Shown piece by piece: positions 9,808-39,760 of a DNA stretch of 64,000 nt. The translations under genes were made by a program, and so were the position numbers. Origin of the DNA: an uncultured Prevotellaceae bacterium. Its GTDB lineage: Bacteria > Bacteroidota > Bacteroidia > Bacteroidales > Bacteroidaceae. Within the stretch, counting starts at the first letter, position 1. The number at the start of each line of letters is the position of its first letter. Below the pieces are notes generated by a model. The model made no database searches, was not told the DNA's origin, and saw only the letters and a list, made by a program, of their open reading frames with translations. The stretch spans positions 979-64,978 of the forward strand of contig CACZRN010000013.1 in the NCBI GenBank assembly GCA_902783625.1. Direction: 5' to 3'.

Positions 9808-11271
9808 CTACATGTTCGGCGACGAAACGAGGATGTATGCTCCGTTGTTTGAGTATATCGACGGAATGGTAAACGTCACTCCTCCCACGGTGAGGGGGCT
9901 ACCACCCACGACAGTGATACCCGTGTGGCGTTGGAAGGCTTGTGTGCTGGCGGTGGCGGGAACCGATTCTTTGGCTCCTATGCCCATTAGTGTGCCGCCG
10001 TTGATAAGCAGGCGTTTGGTGGGCTTGAAGGCTGTTGCCTTGTCGGCAGAGGCTGCCACAAGGATACTGCCACCCTCGATGATGATGTTGCCATCAGCCT
10101 TTATGCCGTTTGCCTTGGTGTCGTTCGAGCCATATTCAAACGGACTGCCTGTAGTGACAACGGTGAGGCTGCCGCCTTTGACGGTGAAGTCGGTGTCAGC
10201 CGACATTCCTCTACCACCGCTACCTGTTGCCGTAGCATTGACGACACCTGCCGTCATAGTGAACTCGGTGCCTGCCTTGATGGCGGTAGCGCCTTTGGTG
10301 GATTTCTCAACAGTGTCGTACATACCGCCGCCCGTAGCCGTAGCAGTGATGCTACCGCCGCTGATGAGCATGACCGAGTCGCACTTGATGGCCTCGGCGG
10401 CAATGCCTGAAGAGGTGACGGTGAGTGTACCGCCTTCGAAAAGGAATCGTCCGTCGTCGGTTTTATTCTTATCGGTAATACCCACATCGATGCCGTCGCC
10501 TTGCGATGTGATGTTCACCGTTCCACCCTGCTGCTTGTAGTATTGATTCACGTGCAAGCCGTCGCTAACGGCACCGGTGACGGTGATGGTACCTGTGAAC
10601 GTATTGGCAAGTCGCAGGTATTCATCGGCGAAGATGGCATGATTGGTGTTGCCTGCAAGAGTGAGCGTTCCGCTACCCGTCCATTCAGAGTGTCCGTTCA
10701 GATAGAGACATCCCTTGTGGGTGCCGTTGACGGCATCGGCGAGGGTGTTTGTACCTTTCAACTCAATATCGAGACGCTTACCGCTCTCAATCTTTACAGC
10801 CGAGCTGTCGGGGTTTGTAAGAGTGAGGTTGTCGAGCACAAGGGCGGCCTTGAGTTCGCCATCCATGAAGAACGACCCTGCCGTAGAGCTACCGCTGAGG
10901 GTGTAGGTTATCTCGTTGGTAAGAGCGGCGGACTGCAATACGGCGACATGCGCGCCATCGACTTTCACGTCGAGGTGCTGTGCCACATTGCCTGCCACAA
11001 CCACCTGAGCACTACTGCCGTTAAAGGCAACGCTGACAGTGTTGTCGGCAACGGGGGTGTTGTCGATGGTTATGCTCGTGATGTCGGCAATGTTATACGA
11101 TTTCCCCTGAATGGTGAGCGTTGTTGCCGAGGCAAAGGGCATGTGCCCCGCCTGCGCTGCAGAGTGGGCATATGTGATGTTGCCCATATTCACACGCATT
11201 GTCTGAGCCATCGAGGGTACGACGGCGACGGCCATAAGGATGGCTGAAAGTAGAGTCTTCTTCATAGTCAT
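9808..11271 (-). CDS. Secreted Cthe_2159/DUF4353-like beta-helix ('carbohydrate-binding domain') protein, paralogue 1
   Basis: Signal peptide; YTLSGSS..GSF, LTLTNPD..A, HAI.ADEY, repeated I.GG.(I/L/V) and GIKAD/AIKCD coils. Confidence 0.75.
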   Translation of the reverse strand: MTMKKTLLSAILMAVAVVPSMAQTMRVNMGNITYAHSAAQAGHMPFASATTLTIQGKSYNIADITSITIDNTPVADNTVSVAFNGSSAQVVVAGNVAQHLDVKVDGAHVAVLQSAALTNEITYTLSGSSTAGSFFMDGELKAALVLDNLTLTNPDSSAVKIESGKRLDIELKGTNTLADAVNGTHKGCLYLNGHSEWTGSGTLTLAGNTNHAIFADEYLRLANTFTGTITVTGAVSDGLHVNQYYKQQGGTVNITSQGDGIDVGITDKNKTDDGRFLFEGGTLTVTSSGIAAEAIKCDSVMLISGGSITATATGGGMYDTVEKSTKGATAIKAGTEFTMTAGVVNATATGSGGRGMSADTDFTVKGGSLTVVTTGSPFEYGSNDTKANGIKADGNIIIEGGSILVAASADKATAFKPTKRLLINGGTLMGIGAKESVPATASTQAFQRHTGITVVGGSPLTVGGVTFTIPSIYSNNGAYILVSSPNM

Positions 11272-11669
11272 TTTACAACAATTTTGCGTGTTTCACCATT
11301 TTGTCTAATGATATACATTCCGCGTGGGAGCTGCTTTTTCACGTCGTCGATGCTCTGGAATGTAGTCACGAGCTGTCCCGAAGGAGTGTAGACACCAACT
11401 GTTTTGTCGTCGGATGCCACGTTAAGGTCGCTGATGCCCGATGTGGATGAGAAATACATCTCGCTGATTTCGCTGAGCGGGATGGTAGTTGTCTCGCCAT
11501 TGCTGACCACCTGCATATTGCCGTCGGCAAAGGTGATTGTGGTACCAAGGGCAGTGACAGCCTGTGCCGGACTACTGGTCTTGACAAAGACAAGATAGTC
11601 GTAATCGCCTGCGCAGACACTCAAAGCGGCTGCGAGCGAAAGGGAAATTGAAAGTATAAATCGCTTCAT
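11268..11669 (-). CDS. Small secreted protein with T9SS C-terminal sorting domain, copy 1
   Basis: Signal peptide MKRFILS; C-terminus VYTPSGQ...LPRGMYII...RKIVVK; ATGA overlap with downstream gene. Confidence 0.75.
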   Translation of the reverse strand: MKRFILSISLSLAAALSVCAGDYDYLVFVKTSSPAQAVTALGTTITFADGNMQVVSNGETTTIPLSEISEMYFSSTSGISDLNVASDDKTVGVYTPSGQLVTTFQSIDDVKKQLPRGMYIIRQNGETRKIVVK

Positions 11670-11698
11670 AATAATGAATTGTGTATCGTTTCGATTCG

Positions 11699-11706
11699 CA
11701 AAATTA
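11699..11706 (-). promoter_or_regulatory. Bacteroidetes -7 box (TAATTTTG) for the 11669/11271 pair
   Basis: Matches TAnnTTTG 30 nt upstream of the ATG. Confidence 0.55.
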
Positions 11707-11750
11707 TGTGTTTTATATATAAACAACAAATAAATTATGTCTTTTTAATA

Positions 11751-28727: not shown

Positions 28728-29867
28728 ATGACAAAGAGACCTATCAACCGAAAAGAGACACTGGTGTACATAGTGCTATGGGCAGCCTTGTTCATAGCCC
28801 CCATCGCCAGTCATTATCTGCATGGCACGACCGACCACACACCCATGAATGGGTGGCACGAGGTGTTTGACATATGGAAGAGCTACGCATTCTTCCTTAT
28901 ATTGTTTCTAATACACAACATCTTCCTTGCGCCCCTGCTTATCTACAAGCGCAAGACTCTTGCCTATATACTCTCCACACTCTGCCTGGTTGGCATGCTC
29001 ATCGCCTTCCAATGCCAGAGCCGCCCTAAAGAGCCATTCCGCCCCGGTCCTCCCGTTGAACATGCCACAGAGATGCAGAACGATATGGAGCTGTCGGAAG
29101 CAGGGCAATATCACGGGCACGACGCCCCGCCGCCACACATCAAGCACCCAGGCAAACGACCGCCGCTGATATGGGGCGAGCAGGATGTCGTAGGGGTGAT
29201 AATACTCATCCTGCTGCTGGGAATGAATCTCGGAGTGAAGCTCTATTTCAAGTCGGAAGACGACATGAAGAGCCTGCATGAACTTGAGCGGAAGAATCTC
29301 GAGCAGCAACTCGAAGTGCTGAAATATCAGATAAATCCCCACTTCCTGATGAACACGCTCAACAACATCCACGCCCTTGTCGATTTCAACCCCGAAGGGG
29401 CGAAGGAAAGCATCGTTGAACTATCGAAACTACTCAGGCATATACTCTACAAAGGCGACAACGGATTCCTCTCAATCGACAAAGAGATAAAATTCATCAA
29501 CCACTACATCCGCCTGATGCGTATACGCTATTCCGACACCATCGACATCGAGGCGACCTTCCCCGAATACCCACCCGACCGCGAGATACCGTCGCTCATG
29601 CTCATCACATTTGTCGAAAACGCCTTCAAACATGGCATAAGCTACAAACACCCGTCGTTCATAAAAATCAATATGACCACCGACGACAACCGCATGCAGT
29701 TCACCGTTGCCAATAGCAAGCACCCCTCCACACCGGAGCACAAGGAGGGAATAGGACTGGCAAACGTGAAGAAACGCCTCGACATTCTCTTCGGCGATGA
29801 CTATCAACTCGACATCATCGACGGCGACGACACCTACGACGTCTGCCTCAATATACCAATAAGGTGA
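28728..29867 (+). CDS. LytS/YehU-type sensor histidine kinase
   Basis: LKYQINPHFLMNTLNNI H-box, FVENAFKHG N-box, GIGLANVKKRL; N-terminal TM helices. Confidence 0.93.
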   Translation: MTKRPINRKETLVYIVLWAALFIAPIASHYLHGTTDHTPMNGWHEVFDIWKSYAFFLILFLIHNIFLAPLLIYKRKTLAYILSTLCLVGMLIAFQCQSRPKEPFRPGPPVEHATEMQNDMELSEAGQYHGHDAPPPHIKHPGKRPPLIWGEQDVVGVIILILLLGMNLGVKLYFKSEDDMKSLHELERKNLEQQLEVLKYQINPHFLMNTLNNIHALVDFNPEGAKESIVELSKLLRHILYKGDNGFLSIDKEIKFINHYIRLMRIRYSDTIDIEATFPEYPPDREIPSLMLITFVENAFKHGISYKHPSFIKINMTTDDNRMQFTVANSKHPSTPEHKEGIGLANVKKRLDILFGDDYQLDIIDGDDTYDVCLNIPIR

Positions 29868-30006
29868 GCCCCCTATAATCCCCCAAGGGGGATGGCTAAT
29901 CTGTTAATATGTTAATGCTCGCAAATGAAATCTAAAGTTCTGCTCGACGTTGCCCCTGCGGGGGAGAGCAGAGAACTTTGATTGAATTAAGAGGATCAAC
30001 GAAGTT

Positions 30007-30030
30007 AATCCGTAAATCCGTAAATCCGTA
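30007..30030 (+). repeat. (AATCCGTA)x3 tandem repeat immediately before the response-regulator start
   Basis: aatccgta aatccgta aatccgta aat ATG. Confidence 0.85.
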
Positions 30031-30033
30031 AAT

Positions 30034-30765
30034 ATGTCAATCCGCTGCCTTGCCATCGACGACGAGCCCCTGGCCCTCCGTCAACTCGCACAATATATTG
30101 AGAAGATACACTACCTCGAACTAGTCGGGCAGTGCCATAGCGCGCTCGACGCACAACAGCTGATGGAGCGCGAGCACATCGATGCCATATTCATCGATAT
30201 CAACATGCCCGACCTCAACGGCCTGCAGTTCATACGCTCACTCGAGCAGCCGCCAATTGTCGTGCTCACCACAGCCTACTCAGAGTATGCCCTCGACGGA
30301 TACAAAGTCAATGCCGTCGATTATCTCCTCAAGCCCTTCAGCTTCGACGAGTTCAACCAAGCCGCAGGGAAAGTGAAACGCCAATATGAACTCACCCACA
30401 GCCTTGCCACCGACGACATCAGTACACGCCACGACGGCAACCTGTTCGTGAAGACCGAACACCGACATGTGAAAATCAGTGTCGCCGACATACTCTATAT
30501 CGAAGGGATGAGCGAGTACGTGAAGATTCACTTCTGCAACGACACCCATGCCCTCACCATACTCACAAGCATGAAAAAACTCGAGGACCTGCTGCCCCCT
30601 GCCACCTTTATGCGCATACATCGCTCATACATCGTAAATCTAAACCATGTCACCGAAGTGAATAAAAGCCGTGTTGCCCTTGTCGGCGACGTCAGTCTGC
30701 CCATCGGCGATCTCTACCGCGACGTCCTGCGACAATACCTCGACAGCCACACCCTCAGCAAGTGA
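30034..30765 (+). CDS. LytTR family response regulator
   Basis: IDDEPLA, DINMPD.NG, TTAYSEYA, DYLLKP, FMRIHRSYIVN. Confidence 0.95.
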   Translation: MSIRCLAIDDEPLALRQLAQYIEKIHYLELVGQCHSALDAQQLMEREHIDAIFIDINMPDLNGLQFIRSLEQPPIVVLTTAYSEYALDGYKVNAVDYLLKPFSFDEFNQAAGKVKRQYELTHSLATDDISTRHDGNLFVKTEHRHVKISVADILYIEGMSEYVKIHFCNDTHALTILTSMKKLEDLLPPATFMRIHRSYIVNLNHVTEVNKSRVALVGDVSLPIGDLYRDVLRQYLDSHTLSK

Positions 30766-30996: not shown

Positions 30997-31122
30997 TTTC
31001 AATGCACAATGCAGAGTGAAGAGCCATCGCGCTGCCGCAAGGTCTTATAATGGTGATATTGCGCCTCATGTGTAACCTCAACGTCGCTGCCTCGCCGCAG
31101 ATCATCAGGATGGCGATACGTT

Positions 31123-31160
31123 AATAGCCGGCAGCGAACCGATTGTCGCTGCCGGCTATT
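31123..31160. terminator. Hairpin terminator between convergent genes
   Basis: aatagccggcagcga-accgattg-tcgctgccggctatt perfect 15-bp stem. Confidence 0.75.
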
Positions 31161-31228
31161 GTTGCTGTTATCGCCGTCGTGGTTGTTATGTGCGGGGCGC
31201 TACGGTTTCTCATTGCCCCGACAGCATC

Positions 31229-33430
31229 CTACCATCCCATGCCTCCCGAGCTGTATTGTGTTGCCTTTGCCGTCTTCGACGTGTTGCCGAGTGTGATGGT
31301 ATAGCTGTTTCCTGCTGTCATGCCTGGCGCGGTAACGATTATCGAGCCGTTTGAGAAGGAGTATGCTGGCATCTGGAATGAGGCGAGCACGGTGCTGCCG
31401 CTCTTCAGCGTGACGGTGCTATTGGCGCTCACACCTCCCGAGGTGGTTACATAGCACTGCGTGGACTGCGCCTTGGTGGGGTGAGAGTTGTTGCCGCCAA
31501 TACCGAACAACTGTCCTCCGGTGAAATAGACTGTCGCTCCACCTTCCTCGTTGGCATCGATGCCACACTCTGGAGTTCGTGACCCTATTGCCACCACTGT
31601 GCCGCCACTGAGACGAATATTGCCGTTGGCATCGAGGGCGTCGCCAGTCTTGTTACCGCCTCCTCCGCCACCAGGCCCCCAGCCGCCACCGCCGCCTGAT
31701 GATGTAGCCTTGGTACCTGTGGCAACAGCATACACGGTGCCACCGCTGATGGTCATATCTTTGGTGCAATTGATACCGTCGTCGGCATTGGAGATACCTG
31801 TCACCATGCCACCTTTGACGGTGAGTGTTGTCTTGCTCTCTATACTCTCGTGATAGTCGGCTGTCGCCTTCACGGTGCCGCCGCTGATGGTAATGGCGCC
31901 GTCGGCTTTAATACCTTTTGCCGCTTTGCTATACGTGCCGCCCTTGTTGTAGTTTGTGCCGGTGACGGTAACGGTGACATCGCCGTCGGAAATGTCAATA
32001 GTGTTATCGCTGCTGATACCCTTTCCGCCTTGTCCAGAACTCTGTGCCGTGACGGTGCCACCGCTTATTACGACAGTGCCGCCCTTGAATCCGGCGCAAC
32101 CTGAGAGATCTGTTCCGCTGCCACAATAGCCTCCCGACGTGGTAGCCGATGCTTTGCCACCGCTGATGGTGAGCACACCGTCGGCCTTTATGCCTTTGCT
32201 GCCGGCTCCCGAGGTGGTAACAGTGACGTCGGCCTCATCGCTGATGGTGACATCGCCGTCGGCTTTTATGCCTCCTGCCTTGCGAATGCTGCTGCCGCTG
32301 CCATAGATGGCTCCAGTGGATGTGGCCTTGACAGTGCCTCCGCTGAGCAGGATGTATCCGTCGCTGTTAACGACGCGACTGCCGGCTCCCGAGCACGACA
32401 TGGTGAGCTCGCCGCCGCTTATCTCGACGCCGATACCACTCTTCAGGCACGCTGCATATGCATAGTCGGTAGCATCTGATGTGTCAGGGGCTCCGTTGGC
32501 TGAGAGTGTCAGTGTTCCACCGGAGATGAGCATGGTGGAATCGCACGTGATGGCTTTGGCACCTGCAGCAGTGGCAGCAATGTCGAGCGTGCCACCTTTG
32601 ATGATAACCTTGCCATCGTCGGCGTCGCCTTTCCCATCCATTGCCACGGAAATACCGTCGTCACCGATATTCTTAAGCGTCACGGTGCCGCCGTTCATCT
32701 TGAAGTATTGATTCACATTGAAACCGTCGCCCACTGCCTTGAGCACATTGATGGTGCCTGCGGTTTTCTTCACCTCCACATACTCGTCGCCCCAGAAGGC
32801 GTGCTTCATGTTACCCGTGAGGTTCAGTGTGCCGCCACCCCTCAGTTCTGTATGTCCGTTCACCATCAGACAACCCTTTTGGTCGCCACTGGTGCCATCG
32901 GCAAGAGTGTTCGCAGTTCCGTCGGCAAGCTCGATACTAATACGCTTACCGTCGTCGATGCGGATGGCATACCCGTCGGCATTGGTCAGGCTAAGTCCAT
33001 TGAGCACAAACGAGGCTTTCAGCTCACCGTCCATATAGAACGAGCCATCGCTGCTCTGCCCCGAGAGTGTGTAGGTTATCTCATCGGCCTGATCGCTGCC
33101 TTGAACAATGCTCACATCGGCACCTTTAGCCACGACATCGAGATTCTTCATCACATTGCCAGCCACCGTCACCGCAGCAGTGTTGCCGTCATAGACGACG
33201 CCAACGGTATTATCTACCACCGCAGTGGCATCGACATACATATTATCTATCTCGCTTATTTTAAAGGTCTTGCCCATGATGGAGAGTGTGGCTCCATCGT
33301 CATAAAGCATATCACCAGCCTGTGATGCCGGCACCTGATATGTCACCTCGCCCACAACCACATTAAGTGTCTGGCTGATGGCAGCATGCACACAGCACAA
33401 GGCCGTAAGAATTAATATGGTCTTCTTCAT
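31229..33430 (-). CDS. Secreted Cthe_2159/DUF4353-like beta-helix protein, paralogue 2 (expanded coils)
   Basis: Clear homology to 9808-11271 (EITYTLSG.S..GSF.MDGELKA, GKR, KGCL..NGH); many ISGG/KGIKAD coils; GGGGGWGPGGGGG loop. Confidence 0.78.
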   Translation of the reverse strand: MKKTILILTALCCVHAAISQTLNVVVGEVTYQVPASQAGDMLYDDGATLSIMGKTFKISEIDNMYVDATAVVDNTVGVVYDGNTAAVTVAGNVMKNLDVVAKGADVSIVQGSDQADEITYTLSGQSSDGSFYMDGELKASFVLNGLSLTNADGYAIRIDDGKRISIELADGTANTLADGTSGDQKGCLMVNGHTELRGGGTLNLTGNMKHAFWGDEYVEVKKTAGTINVLKAVGDGFNVNQYFKMNGGTVTLKNIGDDGISVAMDGKGDADDGKVIIKGGTLDIAATAAGAKAITCDSTMLISGGTLTLSANGAPDTSDATDYAYAACLKSGIGVEISGGELTMSCSGAGSRVVNSDGYILLSGGTVKATSTGAIYGSGSSIRKAGGIKADGDVTISDEADVTVTTSGAGSKGIKADGVLTISGGKASATTSGGYCGSGTDLSGCAGFKGGTVVISGGTVTAQSSGQGGKGISSDNTIDISDGDVTVTVTGTNYNKGGTYSKAAKGIKADGAITISGGTVKATADYHESIESKTTLTVKGGMVTGISNADDGINCTKDMTISGGTVYAVATGTKATSSGGGGGWGPGGGGGGNKTGDALDANGNIRLSGGTVVAIGSRTPECGIDANEEGGATVYFTGGQLFGIGGNNSHPTKAQSTQCYVTTSGGVSANSTVTLKSGSTVLASFQMPAYSFSNGSIIVTAPGMTAGNSYTITLGNTSKTAKATQYSSGGMGW

Positions 33431-33834
33431 CTTATTGCAATTTTAGTAGTTTTGTCTTTTTGCTTGATTACGTACATCCCTGCTTTCAGCTTACTCTTGG
33501 CCACTGCCATAGTAGGATATTTTCCAACGAAAACTCCTGCCACCGAATAGACTTCCACCTGCGATGTGCTGCCGTCGACAGTCACCTCACTAATGCCTGT
33601 CGGGGTGTCGGTGAAATACATCTTCGTCAGGTCGGTAAGCAGAAATTGTTTTGTTCCATCGCCATTCACAGCGACAAGTTTACCATCAGCAAACGTTATT
33701 GTCAAGTCGGTCACCGAGACAGTCTGGCTGACACCATTGCTATTGGTAAACGCAAGATAGTTGTACTCAAAACCGTCGGCAAAGGCGGCAGGAGCACAAG
33801 CTATTACCATCAATACTAATAATAATCTTTTCAT
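33427..33834 (-). CDS. Small secreted protein with T9SS C-terminal sorting domain, copy 2
   Basis: Homologous to 11268-11669 (Y.YL.F, TITFADG, MYF); C-terminus VYSVAG...LKAGMYVI...KIAIR; ATGA overlap. Confidence 0.75.
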   Translation of the reverse strand: MKRLLLVLMVIACAPAAFADGFEYNYLAFTNSNGVSQTVSVTDLTITFADGKLVAVNGDGTKQFLLTDLTKMYFTDTPTGISEVTVDGSTSQVEVYSVAGVFVGKYPTMAVAKSKLKAGMYVIKQKDKTTKIAIR

Positions 33835-33866
33835 ATTCTATACATCTGATACTCTTAGCTGTAATG

Positions 33867-33922
33867 CAAATTTACGAAAACCCGCCTGTTTGCAGAAAAA
33901 TAATCAGCAAACAGGCGAGTTT
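33867..33922 (-). promoter_or_regulatory. Terminator hairpin of the upstream operon next to a -7 box (TAAATTTG) for the 33834/33430 pair
   Basis: cgcctgtttgc...gcaaacaggcg stem, then TAAATTTG at 33874-33867. Confidence 0.6.
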
Positions 33923-33946
33923 GTTAAGTGAAACCGAAATATGCGG

Positions 33947-35155
33947 TTAATACTCTAGAATAACAAATCTCTCTGTTTTCTTGTATTTTGTCCATCCACT
34001 GCCGATGACGAGACTACCGTCGGCATCGAGGGGTTTTGAGTATGCGCTATAGCAGAATAATTTCCCTGCGCTGACAATGATATCCTCGTCGCTTTTTATC
34101 GTTTTCGGAGCGCCAATGCCTTTCTCTCCAAGCGTGACAGCGGTAATATCACCACCGCCGATGGTAATGCTCTTAGTAGCATTGATGGCCTTGCCTCCCA
34201 TACCAGTGCTCTTCAAACGAAGTGTGCCTGCGGTAATGGTGAACGTGCTGTCGCACTTCATTGCGGCACATGAAGTTGTGTCGTTACCCTCGACAATGCT
34301 CTGACCAGTGGTAATGACAGTGGTGCGACCACCGCTTACATTTATATACCCATCGGTGTTGATGCCCTTGGAACCACGGAAACTAACCTCGGCATTGATT
34401 ACACTGCCGCGGATGTCGATGCCGTCGTTAGCCTTAATGCCATGACCGGCTGTTGAGTTAACGTAGAACTTACTGCCAGGACGGAAGATAATATAGTCGT
34501 CGCTGGCAATGGCATGACGGTGTTTCCCATACACACGCAACTCTCCTGTGCCGCTGAATACGATCTGTCCTTCGCTGAAGAAAGCGCCTTTCTCATCCTC
34601 GGATGTCTCTGAGGCATACTCCTCGCCATCAGTGATTGTGTTCACCGAGCCAGGAGCGAGCACCACATACATATGTTTACCAGCCTGATTATTGATGGCT
34701 GCACCCTCAGGATTTGTAAGCGTAAGACCTGCAAGGGTGAGCTGAAATTTATATGAACTGTAAATCTTCAATGATCCATTGCTGCTTGAACCGCTGACGA
34801 GGTACTCTACTTCCTTCGAATAAGAGTCGATGATGACATGTGCTCCGCTAATCACCACATCCACATCATCGACATCGCCGCTCACAGTGGCAGTGGTGCC
34901 ATTGTAAACAATCGCCACCTGATTGGTGAAAGGACTGTTCTCAACATAGTCGTTATCCAACTCGTCGATAATCTCTGTCGGCTCCACAAGGTCGGTGTTG
35001 TCAATCTCAATATCTGGGACATCTACCTTCTCGTTGTCGCTGATGATGTCGGAAAAGTCAGTATCGTCGCTAACGCATCCCACCATGGCGAAGATGAGCA
35101 ACGAGGCCATCAGCCGTGGCAGAACATATGTATATGTCAGTACACTTTTTTTCAT
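33947..35155 (-). CDS. Cthe_2159/DUF4353-like beta-helix lipoprotein, paralogue 3
   Basis: Lipobox MVGC followed by acidic residues; LTLTNP.GAAINNQ.GK, EDEKGA.FSEGQ, HAIASDDY, GIKAND. Confidence 0.8.
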   Translation of the reverse strand: MKKSVLTYTYVLPRLMASLLIFAMVGCVSDDTDFSDIISDNEKVDVPDIEIDNTDLVEPTEIIDELDNDYVENSPFTNQVAIVYNGTTATVSGDVDDVDVVISGAHVIIDSYSKEVEYLVSGSSSNGSLKIYSSYKFQLTLAGLTLTNPEGAAINNQAGKHMYVVLAPGSVNTITDGEEYASETSEDEKGAFFSEGQIVFSGTGELRVYGKHRHAIASDDYIIFRPGSKFYVNSTAGHGIKANDGIDIRGSVINAEVSFRGSKGINTDGYINVSGGRTTVITTGQSIVEGNDTTSCAAMKCDSTFTITAGTLRLKSTGMGGKAINATKSITIGGGDITAVTLGEKGIGAPKTIKSDEDIIVSAGKLFCYSAYSKPLDADGSLVIGSGWTKYKKTERFVILEY

Positions 35156-35895
35156 CAGAATTTATATTTATAGCTTAAACCTAAAACATGGCGGTTGGGA
35201 TCGTTGTCGCCATCGAAATTGTTGACTGCCTGATAGCGATAGTAGAGACTGAAGGTGTGAATCTTCTTGAGTTTGTAGTCGACTCCAGCGGTATATCTCA
35301 CCCTCTCCAACCTAAGGGCATTGAACAACTCCACGCTGGCATAGGGATCTACCTTGCACTTAGGAATGTCGTATTCCACCGTAAGCCGCGAGCGAAGCAT
35401 GTTCTTCCCCTTGCTACGCACGTTAGTATCCTCCCAATATGCATTGTCGAAATCGTAGCGTGTTGTGGTTTTCGAAGGGCGATACGTGTATTGCCACCTT
35501 TCGCGCAGTGAAAACTCAAAGCGACCGAACTTCTTGCTGCCGGTGACATTAATCATCACGCGGTGGCTGCTGGCCCAATACGAGGGCCGCCAGTTGTTGT
35601 AATTGCCGTCAGGGTTGTAAGTTATCTTCTCCTTGACATTGTCGAGCATGAACATATAGCCAGCGCTGATCTTGATTCCTTTCACAGGCTTGAAGTTCAC
35701 ATCGGCCTCAAAATTCCAACAGTCGGCAGTGCGGGTATTGTTGCGTGTACGGAATTCCACTTCGCCTTCCACGCTCCATTTCTTGTCTATCTTCTTCTCG
35801 GCATTAACGGTATACCATATACCGAAGTCATCACTCTGAGCATGAGCGACGAGCAACGGACAAAGAAGCATCAGCGATAAAAAAAATCTCTTCAT
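35155..35895 (-). CDS. DUF2490-like outer-membrane beta-barrel protein
   Basis: Signal peptide, amphipathic strands, RERWQY/LRSRL/PYASVE motifs, C-terminal LGLSYKYKF. Confidence 0.75.
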   Translation of the reverse strand: MKRFFLSLMLLCPLLVAHAQSDDFGIWYTVNAEKKIDKKWSVEGEVEFRTRNNTRTADCWNFEADVNFKPVKGIKISAGYMFMLDNVKEKITYNPDGNYNNWRPSYWASSHRVMINVTGSKKFGRFEFSLRERWQYTYRPSKTTTRYDFDNAYWEDTNVRSKGKNMLRSRLTVEYDIPKCKVDPYASVELFNALRLERVRYTAGVDYKLKKIHTFSLYYRYQAVNNFDGDNDPNRHVLGLSYKYKF

Positions 35896-35906
35896 ATGGT
35901 AAACTG

Positions 35907-36581
35907 TTATTTTCCGTTCACATCACTAAGATCCTGGCGCACAAGCTTAATCTTGTGGTTGACGTTGTTGGCTGTTTCATCGCCTTGTGCCTGATATATT
36001 ATTTTTATCACAGCCATGTCGCGAAGGAAATCGATGGCACCCACCTCCACTTTGTCAATCTTCAACCCAGTGCGCTCTTCAAGGTCGGCAATGAGTTCAC
36101 TGCGACGCTCTGGGGTTATCAATGCAATGCGGTCGTATTGAATAATCTTCGAAACTTCTGTCTTCAGCACCCGCTCAAACAGCCATATAGCAGCTATGAC
36201 AATAATATTGGTCAGCAACAGCTCGGCAAGCGACATCGTTGCACCGAGGGCATTCACCACCGACAAGCAGATGATTACGAAAAGATATGTCATCTCACGC
36301 ACCGGCATGGTATCGGTTCGATAGCGCATGATGCTGAAGATGCCGAACAAGCCGATTCCGATACCCATACTCGTCTTGCCTTTCATGTCTTCGAGAACGA
36401 AAATCATGAAGAAAACAAGGAAGAAGATGGCGATGGATATCAACATATAGGTAAAATAGAAATCGCGGCGATGGCTCTTCTTGAAGTAGAGCCGATCGAC
36501 AATTATCCAGTTTACTATCAGACAGATGAAGAATCTGAACAACATTCCACCGAAGTCAGTAGACAATGATAAATCAAACAT
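35907..36581 (-). CDS. DUF4956 family inner-membrane protein
   Basis: GLFGIFSIMRYRT...REMTYLF motif; N-terminal TM helices plus a soluble C-terminal domain. Confidence 0.85.
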   Translation of the reverse strand: MFDLSLSTDFGGMLFRFFICLIVNWIIVDRLYFKKSHRRDFYFTYMLISIAIFFLVFFMIFVLEDMKGKTSMGIGIGLFGIFSIMRYRTDTMPVREMTYLFVIICLSVVNALGATMSLAELLLTNIIVIAAIWLFERVLKTEVSKIIQYDRIALITPERRSELIADLEERTGLKIDKVEVGAIDFLRDMAVIKIIYQAQGDETANNVNHKIKLVRQDLSDVNGK

Positions 36582-36614
36582 AGGTTATTCGTTTTTTTAT
36601 TTGTTTTTAATTAT

Positions 36615-37382
36615 TTACTTATTAAGAAGTCGGCAACCAGTAAGTTTTTCCACCTCAATCATCTTTCTCTTGAAACGGTTCACCCGCAGCGAACTGTTCG
36701 TCATCACCGATCCCATGCAGTATTTGCTGAACCCGTGAGGATGTATCCGCAGGTCGAGCAGCATCTCAAGCACCGGTGAGTAGCACAATCCATCGCGCTT
36801 CAATTCTATCACAACGAAATTGCCCACATCGGTTTTCCTGCCACTTACATGATTATCGAAACATAAGTCGAGATCAATTGTCAGCCGCTCTGTCTTCTGC
36901 TTATTTACCAATGTGATGCGGTTGAAATGATTACTCAGGGCAGGCCTCAGCGTGGCGAGGTCGTAATGAAGATACTTTGTCAGAAATTCACGCTCCTCGT
37001 AGCTCTCCATCAACATATTGTCCACAACCATTCGCTTTTTCTTCGTACGCCCATGGTTGTTTTTCGTCTTCACCTCCATGAACTGCTCCCCGGAATTGTC
37101 GTAAGTGCGGAAGCGCAACTTCTGGCGGTTCGCATGCCCTGTCTGATGTACATAGAACATGTTGAAATCGTAGGTATCGAAGTATGTAGTACTGTATCCT
37201 GACAGTCTCTCACCGTCAACATCCTGGGCAAAATATTCCTCGCGAGCCATCATGAGCAATTTCTCAACCATCTCGCGAGTAGTCACAAATTTTGTGTCTA
37301 TGCGATTCATCAGTCTTATGCCACTCATCTCATCGAGGGTGATGGGGGTATAGCTGCCAATTAGGTTGGTAATATTACTCAT
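36615..37382 (-). CDS. VTC-domain (polyphosphate polymerase, CYTH/TTM fold) protein
   Basis: NRIDTKF, TTYFDT, RQKLRFRTY, EVKTK, RLTID, VIELK, FSKY motifs. Confidence 0.88.
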   Translation of the reverse strand: MSNITNLIGSYTPITLDEMSGIRLMNRIDTKFVTTREMVEKLLMMAREEYFAQDVDGERLSGYSTTYFDTYDFNMFYVHQTGHANRQKLRFRTYDNSGEQFMEVKTKNNHGRTKKKRMVVDNMLMESYEEREFLTKYLHYDLATLRPALSNHFNRITLVNKQKTERLTIDLDLCFDNHVSGRKTDVGNFVVIELKRDGLCYSPVLEMLLDLRIHPHGFSKYCMGSVMTNSSLRVNRFKRKMIEVEKLTGCRLLNK

Positions 37383-37399
37383 AAATCAAATATGCTCCG

Positions 37400-37407
37400 C
37401 AAAAATA
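37400..37407 (-). promoter_or_regulatory. -7 box (TATTTTTG) of the VTC operon
   Basis: TAnnTTTG match 18 nt upstream of the ATG in a divergent intergenic region. Confidence 0.5.
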
Positions 37408-37508
37408 ATATTTTTTGTTCTTAAAAACTAAAAAAATCAACAAAAATGACATTCAAAAAGGTAAATTCACTACTTTTGTCGACTGAAAGATATAAACAAA
37501 GCAAAATC

Positions 37509-38405
37509 ATGAAAGATAAAAGCATAAACGGCCACGTGGCAATAATCCTTGCCAACGTCATTTTCGGCCTTGGTGTTCCTGCAACTAAGTTACTGCTCGA
37601 CAAGTGGGTTACGCCCATGACCTACATGGCTACACGCTGCATAGGGGCAGCACTTATTTTCTGGGCAATATCGCTGTTCCTGCCAAAGGAGAAAGTAGAG
37701 CGCAAAGACCTAATCGTTATCATCATCGGAGGTCTGCTGGGGTTTGTCATCTCACAGACATTCACCGCTTGGGCGCTCAATTTCACAAGCCCTGTCTATT
37801 ATTCGCTCATCGCCACTCTCACCCCAATAGCGGTGCTTATGCTTGCTGTGCCTATTCTCGGTGAGAAGGCATCGGGCACTAAGCTGCTCGGTGTGGTGCT
37901 TGGTATCGCAGGTGCCGCCCTGATGGTGGTGCTTAAATGGCGGTCGGAGGCAGGAAGCAACGACCTGCTGGGGATTTTCCTGGCTCTGATGAGTCTGCTC
38001 ACATGGGCTATCTACCTGATAATCACACGAAAAGTTTCTGAGAAATATAGTCCCGTAACCCAGATGAAATGGGTGTTTCTGGTATCGACAATCGCCGTAT
38101 TGCCTTTCGCATGGAAGGAGTTTCCACAGACTGCCCTCTACGGCAATCCGCTTTCTTCAGCATCGATTGAAGGAGTGGCACTGATGGCATTCATCGTCAT
38201 CTTCGCCACTGTACTGGGCTATTTCATGATTCCCTACGCAATGAAATACCTGCAAGCCACCACAGTGAGTATCTACACCAACCTGCAGCCCGTTGTGGCG
38301 TCGCTCGTGGCAATAGCCATCGGACAAGACATCTTCACATGGGACAAGCCGCTGGCTGCCGTGCTCGTACTTGTGGGAGCATGGTTGGTAACAAATAGGA
38401 AATAG
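37509..38405 (+). CDS. DMT/EamA family transporter
   Basis: About 10 TM segments in two EamA repeats; LGEK, YTNLQPVVA. Confidence 0.88.
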   Translation: MKDKSINGHVAIILANVIFGLGVPATKLLLDKWVTPMTYMATRCIGAALIFWAISLFLPKEKVERKDLIVIIIGGLLGFVISQTFTAWALNFTSPVYYSLIATLTPIAVLMLAVPILGEKASGTKLLGVVLGIAGAALMVVLKWRSEAGSNDLLGIFLALMSLLTWAIYLIITRKVSEKYSPVTQMKWVFLVSTIAVLPFAWKEFPQTALYGNPLSSASIEGVALMAFIVIFATVLGYFMIPYAMKYLQATTVSIYTNLQPVVASLVAIAIGQDIFTWDKPLAAVLVLVGAWLVTNRK

Positions 38406-38525
38406 CACAACAGTTGCCGTGCGAATTATAACAAAGTGCTGACATACAGGCTTTTCTGCGACATAAAACTCTTAAAACCGCCACACGACAACGCGATATC
38501 CTATCCACTTGCGCCGTCTTTAGAA

Positions 38526-38630
38526 AATTTTGCTAGCAAATTTTCGATTAAAAAGGCTCTTTATTGACATTAAAAGGGCTCTTTAATGACATTAGAAAGG
38601 CTCTTTATTGAAAAATTTGCTAGCAAAATT
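38526..38630. repeat. Phased-dyad intergenic element copy 3 (cap-3 units-cap)
   Basis: Caps centred at 38534.5 and 38621.5 (87 bp = 65+22); three att.aa..ggctcttta.tga units. Confidence 0.92.
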
Positions 38631-38757
38631 ATTTGTCAGATTATTTCTATACCGTTTCTCTCTTGTTTTGTTTCTTTAGCAATCGCGCTTCCGAGAAAAA
38701 GTATCAGACATCTTCTATTCATCCGGCAGACAGGAGACCAGAACCCACATACAAATA

Positions 38758-38789
38758 ACCCCGAAAGTCTTCGCACGGCTCTCGGGGTT
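38758..38789 (-). terminator. Terminator hairpin
   Basis: aaccccga...tcggggtt. Confidence 0.55.
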
Positions 38790-38806
38790 GTTATCAGTAT
38801 CTCAAC

Positions 38807-39760
38807 TTATTTTCCGAATATCGACAGCATCGGTCGTCCCACCCATACCTGTGGGGTTTCAAGCCCCAATATGTAGGCTATGGTGGCTGGCACATCATAC
38901 TGCATCATGGCGTCGGTTATCTCAAATCCGCGCTTCACACCCTTTCCGTAAACGATAAACGGCGACAGCATCTCGTCGAGAGTCATGCCTCCGTGGCCTT
39001 TGTTGATGCCGCCATGATCGGCTGTGAGCACGAAGATGGTGTCGTCGAAGATGCCTGCCTCTTTCACCGCCTCAACCACCTGCGCGATGCAGTGGTCGAG
39101 AATGGTCTCGAAGCTGTAATAGTCGTCGGTATACCATCCTTTGTCATGGCCTTGCAAATCAAGACCGCCATAATAGAGGGCGAAGAAAGTAGGCTTTTGC
39201 TGCTTGATATAGTCGGTAGCCTTTTTATTATATTCGAAGGGATCGCCGCACTCTTTGCAGTTCTCAGGCCCGTATCCGCCACGATAATAGAACATCACAT
39301 CGTCGACGGCAAGCGTGTCGATAACGTATTTTATGCCTATCCAGTCGAACTGCGCGCCTGTCCTGGCATTTGGTCTCTGCTCCTTCAGAATGGAGAATAT
39401 CGTTGGGAATATGCCGTGATTGTTTACCACCGACGACGGTATCTCGGGCACTTGCGAATTCCATTTTGTGTAACCGTGGCTCTCAGTGCCGGCTCCCATG
39501 AAGTTCGATGCCCAGTTGATTGCCGATGCCGATGGCAGCACCGAGCGTTTCTTCAGCGTGTAGCTGCCGTTTTTCATCAGCACGTCCTTCACTGTCGGCA
39601 TTTCAGCAGTTGCCATACTCTTAGATGCCCAGCCGTCGATACCAATCATTATCACATGCTTTGCTTTTGCCTTGCCTTTTGCCTGCAGCGAGCACGGCAT
39701 TGTAATCATTGCCACTGCCGCAACAAGCATCGCCAGAAAGTTTTGTCTGCGCATTCTCAT
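38807..39760 (-). CDS. Secreted alkaline phosphatase superfamily protein (nucleotide pyrophosphatase/phosphodiesterase type)
   Basis: IGIDG, PSASAINWAS, DLQGH, TADHGG and GHGG metal-ligand motifs. Confidence 0.85.
   Translation of the reverse strand: MRMRRQNFLAMLVAAVAMITMPCSLQAKGKAKAKHVIMIGIDGWASKSMATAEMPTVKDVLMKNGSYTLKKRSVLPSASAINWASNFMGAGTESHGYTKWNSQVPEIPSSVVNNHGIFPTIFSILKEQRPNARTGAQFDWIGIKYVIDTLAVDDVMFYYRGGYGPENCKECGDPFEYNKKATDYIKQQKPTFFALYYGGLDLQGHDKGWYTDDYYSFETILDHCIAQVVEAVKEAGIFDDTIFVLTADHGGINKGHGGMTLDEMLSPFIVYGKGVKRGFEITDAMMQYDVPATIAYILGLETPQVWVGRPMLSIFGK

Follow-up and report, generated by a model that had tools for sequence, protein, structure and literature searches.

What might a predicted relative of the yeast polyphosphate polymerase Vtc4 be doing in a bacterial gene cluster that also encodes an outer-membrane barrel and surface proteins? 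The question is raised by six co-oriented open reading frames (ORFs) at 31229-37382 on the minus strand of a 64,000-nucleotide (nt) stretch of DNA (the window) from an uncultured Prevotellaceae bacterium. The source genome (G000) is a 2.58-Mb metagenome-assembled genome (MAG), 84.6% complete, and the nearest named relatives of the locus are Prevotella and Prevotellaceae MAGs from ruminants. The initial annotation had read the cluster as a candidate system for the synthesis, export and display of polyphosphate, with one component each for the cytoplasm, inner membrane, outer membrane and surface. We find that the first three genes form a conserved core, which is best explained as a module for phosphate-polymer chemistry that spans the envelope, although we hold this reading only tentatively. 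In order of transcription the six genes are:

36615-37382, minus strand: VTC-type triphosphate tunnel enzyme, cytoplasmic, Vtc4-like, 255 amino acids (aa); from Pfam VTC, AlphaFold2 (AF2) and Foldseek, and the lack of a signal peptide

35907-36581, minus strand: DUF4956 inner-membrane protein, 224 aa; from Pfam DUF4956 and the AF2 model

35155-35895, minus strand: DUF2490 outer-membrane beta-barrel of the VTC-linked subfamily, 246 aa; from Pfam DUF2490 and the barrel tree

33947-35155, minus strand: Cthe_2159 beta-helix lipoprotein, acidic, probably surface-exposed, 402 aa; from Pfam and the lipobox

33427-33834, minus strand: mini-protein with a signal peptide, a roughly 55-aa domain and a sub-threshold tail resembling a type IX secretion system (T9SS) C-terminal domain (CTD), 135 aa

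31229-33430, minus strand: large exported Cthe_2159 beta-helix, glycine-rich, acidic, without CTD or lipobox, 733 aa; from Pfam

The division of labour between compartments, the shared orientation and the spacing of the first four genes were all as first described: 33 nt separate VTC from DUF4956 and 11 nt separate DUF4956 from the barrel gene, and the stop codon of the latter overlaps the start codon of the lipoprotein gene by 1 nt. The family assignments were likewise all right and strong. Pfam VTC (PF09359) scores 92.5 bits (cut-off 23, E 3.8e-26), DUF4956 (PF16316) 176.7 bits (cut-off 30.6, E 4.3e-52) and DUF2490 (PF10677) 120.4 bits (cut-off 29.8, E 9.4e-35), with OMP_b-brl also matching at the barrel C-terminus; Cthe_2159 (PF14262) matches the 402-aa protein at 1e-40 and the 733-aa protein at 4.3e-54. 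As read from the sequence, the VTC protein lacks a signal peptide, the barrel protein has one and ends in YKYKF, and the 733-aa protein has a signal peptide of the Sec type. The absence of a signal peptide from the VTC protein, the terminal phenylalanine of the barrel, the lipoprotein and the secreted beta-helix had all been correctly recognised.

To define which genes belong together, 80 loci from different rumen Prevotella species were compared. DUF4956 directly follows VTC in 74 of the 80, and the barrel gene follows DUF4956 in 68 of the 74 loci with room for it. Because of these counts we take VTC, DUF4956 and the barrel to be the core, and their arrangement is, judged by gene order, far from chance. 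A Cthe_2159 gene is found within 6 kb in 37 of the 59 loci with room, 32 loci having it directly after the barrel gene. The co-conservation expected of the whole cluster is thus tight for VTC, DUF4956 and the barrel, but the beta-helices are accessories only.

The pairing extends across the phylum. In a sample of 201 genomes, with counts not corrected for relatedness, VTC was found in 34 genomes (38 matches), and DUF4956 lies within 3 kb of 37 of these 38 matches and directly downstream of 35. A DUF2490 barrel is adjacent to VTC in nine loci belonging to several families. Cthe_2159 is rare in this sample (10-13 of the 201 genomes), occurring beside VTC in four genomes and close to either CotH or DUF2490 in a further three. 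A tree of barrel sequences separates all 19 VTC-linked barrels from 19 unlinked paralogues, some of them from the same genomes, by a 100/100 branch, the unlinked set having been chosen by high Pfam score and several of the linked branches being long. On this tree the VTC-linked barrels form a clade of their own, co-inherited with VTC and DUF4956 across several families.

These data bear on the idea that two unrelated functions lie side by side, in which the barrel and lipoprotein would display an adhesin for the plant cell wall (pectin or cellulose) and VTC-DUF4956 would be adjacent through shared surface regulation. The organism is a rumen Prevotella, the barrel and lipoprotein genes share overlapping stop and start codons, and Cthe_2159 from Clostridium thermocellum is reported to bind cellulose and polygalacturonate. 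The mini-protein/beta-helix pair also occurs apart from VTC, and one genome of the phylum sample (G010) has a Cthe_2159 gene near a DUF2490 barrel without VTC. However, the G010 barrel groups with the unlinked paralogues, and the partners of the barrel are VTC and DUF4956 rather than the beta-helix, because the former association is kept in 68 of 74 loci and the latter in 37 of 59. We therefore consider a juxtaposed adhesin to be improbable.

The 255-aa protein belongs, by its profile and predicted fold, to the VTC family of tunnel enzymes. The AF2 model (predicted local distance difference test score, pLDDT, 96) contains a closed beta-barrel tunnel, and a Foldseek search placed Vtc4 first (3g3r, E 3e-13, template-modelling score 0.63), before Escherichia coli ygiF (7e-10) and CYTH enzymes. 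A search of the PDB with the single sequence gave nothing useful, and the family profile was needed to find Vtc4 (3g3q, 5.7e-5). Across an alignment of 121 homologues, all below 55% identity to the query, 21 positions are invariant. When the profile is aligned to 3g3q, K31 falls opposite Vtc4 K200, R90 and R92 opposite R264 and R266, E193 opposite E426, and S219-K220 opposite S457-K458; K31, R90, R92, E193 and K220 are invariant across all 121 homologues. Residues R264, R266 and E426 are those mutated to inactivate Vtc4 in a cryo-electron microscopy study (PMC9911596). No match to an SPX or VTC membrane domain was found in any of the six proteins, the 255-aa protein consisting of the VTC domain alone. 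Its sequence does not by itself distinguish polymerisation from hydrolysis.

The DUF4956 protein encoded next to it was modelled by AF2 (pLDDT 86) as five helices (residues 4-138) followed by a C-terminal beta-alpha-beta domain (142-222), which in Foldseek weakly resembles ACT domains. All of 38 homologues keep Y32, R86 and R88 unchanged and share the motif F-S-I-x-R-[YF]-R-T at the end of the third helix. Fused VTC-DUF4956 ORFs were considered as proof of interaction and set aside: only two single-member ORFs were found, both on 2-kb contigs, and these may be read-through artefacts because the VTC domain of one is truncated and the linker of the other carries no extra membrane helix. That other ORF, P0271 (526 aa, NCBI, 2-kb contig), has a full VTC domain fused to DUF4956 in gene order and could be a genuine but rare fusion, or else an artefact of read-through.

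Evidence on direction of transport comes from other lineages of the phylum, where a single-pass protein of about 356 aa is encoded directly upstream of VTC-DUF4956 (loci L018, L019, L022, L024-L026, L028-L036 and L004). The profile of this protein matches AcrA, ZneB, TriA, EmrA, MacA and MexA, down to 6e-7, and it is therefore assigned as a periplasmic adaptor of the export-machine kind. An adaptor at the VTC locus of related lineages fits export, as far as profile matches can indicate. The third core component of our cluster, the DUF2490 barrel, has a mature length of about 226 aa, a pI of 9.4 and a net charge of +11, and its family is listed in TCDB as a putative porin (TC 1.B.81) of function not established (PMC4827864). 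The neighbours of unlinked DUF2490 genes were discarded as a clue to its role, as they are a mixed group that includes glutamine synthetase, SulP and a TonB receptor.

The strongest genome-level partner of the cluster, which the initial annotation missed, is the family of secreted CotH kinases. CotH is present in all 34 VTC-positive genomes as against 82 of the 201 overall, and in roughly half of the non-Prevotella loci retrieved it is no more than 10 kb away. The source genome has five CotH genes elsewhere (contigs C97, C146, C15, C73 and C24). Those on C15 (1137 aa) and C73 (1217 aa) are probably secreted to the surface, since both match T9SS sorting domains at their C-terminal ends.

In the proposed phosphate-polymer module, the tunnel enzyme would build a phosphate chain from nucleoside triphosphate in the cytoplasm, as Vtc4 does, a step suggested by the fold and by conservation of the catalytic residues. 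At the inner membrane, DUF4956 may then take up or couple the product, a role suggested only by its invariant pairing with the VTC gene. The dedicated barrel would provide the outer-membrane route, as its co-inheritance and the adaptors at this place in other lineages suggest. On reaching the cell surface, the product would be used in extracytoplasmic phosphate chemistry, perhaps by the T9SS-secreted CotH kinases of the same genome.

A series of observations weighs against this proposal, beginning with the membrane partner. The DUF4956 profile found no match in the PDB, Foldseek with the DUF4956 model returned nothing at E <= 0.001, and VIA-align of 48,161 chains gave generic helical bundles as the best matches (Z 8.3), with Vtc chains not among them. 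By sequence and model searches, DUF4956 has no detectable likeness to the membrane domain of Vtc1/Vtc4 or to any channel; ESM Atlas searches with DUF4956 and with the barrel each returned their own family only. MgtC is a regulator, and its profile (PF02308, cut-off 31.4 bits) scores 12.5 bits (E 0.19) on the DUF4956 protein of the window and up to 19.5 bits (E 0.0013) on homologues. Furthermore, DUF4956 is present without VTC (no match even at E <= 1) in four complete genomes, at L015 (G135), L016 (G111), L017 (G199) and L041 (G035); at L015 a barrel of the linked type and a CotH gene adjoin the VTC-less DUF4956. The suggestion that VTC and DUF4956 form a split polymerase and channel has consequently fared unevenly: the enzyme half is Vtc4-like down to the catalytic residues, but the channel half has no solved relative, weak resemblance to MgtC and occurrences apart from VTC.

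Several of these points would suit a cytoplasmic role in phosphate or nucleotide homeostasis, in which the enzyme would be a triphosphatase or would make polyphosphate that is kept inside, DUF4956 would act as an MgtC-like regulator or anchor, and the barrel and beta-helices would merely be co-regulated. Sub-threshold MgtC matches, the ACT-like domain and the existence of DUF4956 without VTC are all in keeping with this. Enzymes of the tunnel fold in the Foldseek hit list are often triphosphatases or cyclases, and characterised bacterial members are mostly hydrolases or cyclases. The textbook enzymes for polyphosphate synthesis in bacteria are PPK1 and PPK2. Neither of these, nor PPX, was found in the source genome (84.6% complete), and PPK1 and PPK2 were not found in the complete same-order genomes G075 and G119, both of which have the cluster, so that VTC could be the housekeeping polyphosphate synthase of this lineage; the same absence also speaks for the polyphosphate reading of the cluster. 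Across the phylum sample, however, PPK1 is also present in 30 of the 34 VTC-positive genomes, which argues for a special role of VTC rather than a housekeeping one. A homeostatic function also leaves aside the dedicated barrel clade co-inherited with VTC-DUF4956 across several families, and the periplasmic adaptors in the same operon position elsewhere. We regard it as unlikely, though as a possibility to be taken seriously.

The remaining counter-evidence to the phosphate-polymer module concerns the barrel, the CotH kinases and the literature. A basic charge as the mark of a polyphosphate pore was rejected, unlinked DUF2490 paralogues being equally basic (median pI 9.44 versus 9.30, both net +7); because the whole family is basic, the charge of the barrel carries no specific information. 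According to a 2026 preprint, 238 of 2,789 DUF2490 models contain buried networks of charged residues, which would fit an occluded lumen. CotH was found in none of the 80 Prevotella loci. Literature searches found no assay of any bacterial VTC-domain protein, and deletion of the VTC homologue of Streptococcus intermedius has no reported phenotype. The S. intermedius work is the only genetics found, so the remark in the initial annotation that no functional characterisation was known comes close to the truth.

The layout of the cluster also allows for transport in the reverse direction, whereby polyphosphate or an anionic polymer would be captured by the beta-helix, imported by way of the basic barrel and DUF4956 and hydrolysed by the tunnel enzyme. 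A surface lipoprotein with an outer-membrane channel, an inner-membrane protein and a cytoplasmic enzyme is the typical arrangement for nutrient uptake in Bacteroidota, here with a binding lipoprotein and a barrel from a basic family. On the other hand, the AcrA/EmrA-type adaptors of sister lineages belong to export machines, the enzyme is nearest a polymerase and the beta-helix is optional, making uptake very improbable.

What, then, do the beta-helices contribute? The 402-aa lipoprotein matches PDB 4PEU/4PHB at 1.6e-9 and the 733-aa protein matches 4PEU at 6.7e-9. The lipobox of the former, AMVGC, is followed by VSDDTD, and C-[QKE]-[NK]-D-D-[TS]-D-F-S is conserved in those lipoprotein homologues that come after the barrel. 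An acidic motif after the lipobox cysteine marks surface export in Bacteroidota, and the 402-aa lipoprotein is, by this signal, probably surface-exposed. The motif is also a point in favour of export in the phosphate-polymer module. The 733-aa protein contains the glycine run SSGGGGGWGPGGGGGGNK and 17.7% glycine overall, with neither lipobox nor sorting tail. The initial annotation held that the beta-helices capture polyphosphate and that their carbohydrate-binding label may be wrong. Both claims are without support, because the beta-helices are acidic (pI 4.5 and net charge -23 for the lipoprotein, pI 4.7 for the 733-aa protein), which also counts against the phosphate-polymer module, because they are accessory, and because the mini-protein/beta-helix pair also occurs away from VTC. 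It is more likely that they are accessory surface proteins that bind polyanionic glycans, or a calcium-bridged polymer, rather than polyphosphate directly.

Comparison with described systems places the phosphate-polymer module among several partial relatives. The yeast VTC complex (Vtc4/Vtc3/Vtc1; PDB 3G3Q/3G3R, 7YTJ and 8I6V) has the nearest tunnel fold and the same catalytic residues, and the idea that synthesis is coupled to passage is borrowed from it (PMC9911596), the bacterial enzyme having a membrane protein encoded next to it. In contrast to the yeast complex, the 255-aa bacterial enzyme stands alone, without the SPX sensor or the attached three-helix membrane domain; its partner DUF4956 is not detectably related to Vtc1, and the cell has two membranes and an outer-membrane barrel. 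A set of VTC (there named polyphosphate polymerase), DUF4956 and CotH accompanies the Pel loci of Gram-positive bacteria as accessory genes (bioRxiv 768473; mBio PMC12345266), and also occurs in a Clostridium perfringens locus. In Streptococcus intermedius, deletion of the DUF4956 or the CotH homologue halved aggregation, and the authors of that work likewise describe the DUF4956 homologue as MgtC-like. The Prevotella cluster shares with these loci the VTC-DUF4956 pair and the genome-level link to CotH, but its CotH genes lie elsewhere in the genome, a Pel locus is absent, and a barrel and beta-helix lipoproteins are added.

Closer to home, tripartite-efflux-type variants within the same phylum have the same VTC-DUF4956 core, whereas the cluster in the window lacks a periplasmic adaptor and a TolC-type duct and has a small DUF2490 barrel at the outer-membrane position. 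Cthe_2159 of C. thermocellum (4PEU/4PHB) belongs to the same Pfam family as both beta-helices, which match it at about 1e-9, but here the family is represented by a lipoprotein and a glycine-rich 733-aa protein beside VTC, DUF4956 and DUF2490. The MgtC family has a layout similar to that of DUF4956, with a helical membrane domain and an ACT-like C-terminal domain, and gives weak profile matches (E 0.0013-0.26), but DUF4956 scores under the family cut-off. A resemblance to synthase-dependent secretion systems, drawn in the initial annotation, was not borne out: such systems have a glycosyltransferase synthase in the membrane, and their porin is large and has a periplasmic scaffold, but the six proteins have no match to a glycosyltransferase or TPR domain and the barrel is small. 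A literature search on BT3496-3500 turned up one transcriptome table only, listing BT3498-99. Compared with what has been published, the Prevotella form is a novel version of the known VTC arrangement.

Should bacteria have a functional polymerase of the Vtc4 type, it would constitute a third route to polyphosphate. If it were coupled to passage through both membranes, it would amount to an undescribed means of bringing an energy-rich polyanion to the outside, and could explain the phosphoryl donor of secreted CotH-type kinases where ATP is absent. A more specific version can be imagined for rumen Prevotella, with their apparent lack of PPK1 and PPK2, in which a Vtc4-like, PPK-independent route makes polyphosphate and the ATP-free surface receives, by way of DUF4956 and the dedicated barrel, either the polymer itself or its phosphoanhydride energy, feeding T9SS-secreted CotH kinases or loading calcium-binding beta-helix lipoproteins; this version is a long shot. 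If, by contrast, the enzyme proves to be no more than a triphosphatase, the cluster reduces to an envelope operon of the ordinary kind. The VTC protein by itself accounts for 3,734 clusters at 50% identity and the module is found in gut and rumen Bacteroidota including Bacteroides thetaiotaomicron; because it is so widespread, a single series of knockouts and assays would supply the annotation of genes by the thousand.

The last two genes of the cluster appear to stand apart from the core. A homologue of the mini-protein was found in 18 Prevotella loci, in all 18 of which a large Cthe_2159 gene comes directly after it, and the pair lies upstream of VTC in some loci and downstream in others. 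The window itself contains a second such pair 20 kb away on the minus strand, adjoining a MatE transporter gene and consisting of a mini-protein gene (11268-11729, 153 aa) and a Cthe_2159 gene (9808-11271, 487 aa) that overlap by 4 nt; the two mini-proteins of the window are 33% identical (E 8e-24). By these comparisons, the mini-protein and big beta-helix are a separate module and the lipoprotein is a frequent accessory of the core. The label of T9SS-CTD protein given earlier to the 135-aa mini-protein was not established, as its tail scores 17.3 bits against TIGR04183 (cut-off 23, E 0.0034) and 15.5 bits against PF18962 (cut-off 27, E 0.021), with a weak match to PF18962 in 5 of 19 homologues. 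The conserved C-terminal end of the homologues reads GVYIVK..T.KI.VK, and proteins with a CTD are present in the genome. A docking pair, with the N-domain of the mini-protein repeated at the N-terminus of the big beta-helix, was discarded after BLASTP gave no significant match.

Since the core is kept and the mini-protein/big beta-helix pair moves independently, the cluster is, on comparative grounds, two units: a core four-gene operon and a separable pair. A gap of 112 nt divides the lipoprotein gene from the mini-protein gene, which overlaps the 733-aa gene by 4 nt. The gap, 5' of the mini-protein gene, has weak promoter-like and terminator-like matches; matches to sigma-70 promoters are no more frequent than in shuffled sequence. 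Two further elements were noted at the ends of the cluster:

37400-37407, minus strand: candidate -7 promoter element of the Bacteroidota type, TATTTTTG (TAnnTTTG), lying 17 nt before the VTC start codon (ATG), read from sequence

31122-31161, no strand assigned: palindromic hairpin with 16 pairs, nine of them G-C, where the big beta-helix gene and the LytTR gene converge

The TAnnTTTG consensus behind TATTTTTG is that of Bacteroides promoters. The hairpin is likely, from its sequence and position, to be a two-way terminator that ends the cluster.

Upstream of VTC, a gene of about 336 aa in relatives was considered as a further partner and identified as asd, a housekeeping gene that serves as an anchor of synteny. 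In the window, an EamA transporter gene (plus strand) and a gene for an exported phosphodiesterase of the alkaline phosphatase superfamily (minus strand) lie at 37446-39760 between asd and VTC. These two look like an insertion, because asd directly adjoins VTC in 25 of the 80 related loci; EamA and the phosphodiesterase were seen in one other locus only. At the opposite end, genes for a LytS-type histidine kinase and a LytTR response regulator (28728-30765, plus strand) converge on the end of the cluster. Homologues of LytS/LytTR are present within the fetched flanks of about 15 of the 80 related loci, at varying positions, and the pair may regulate the cluster.

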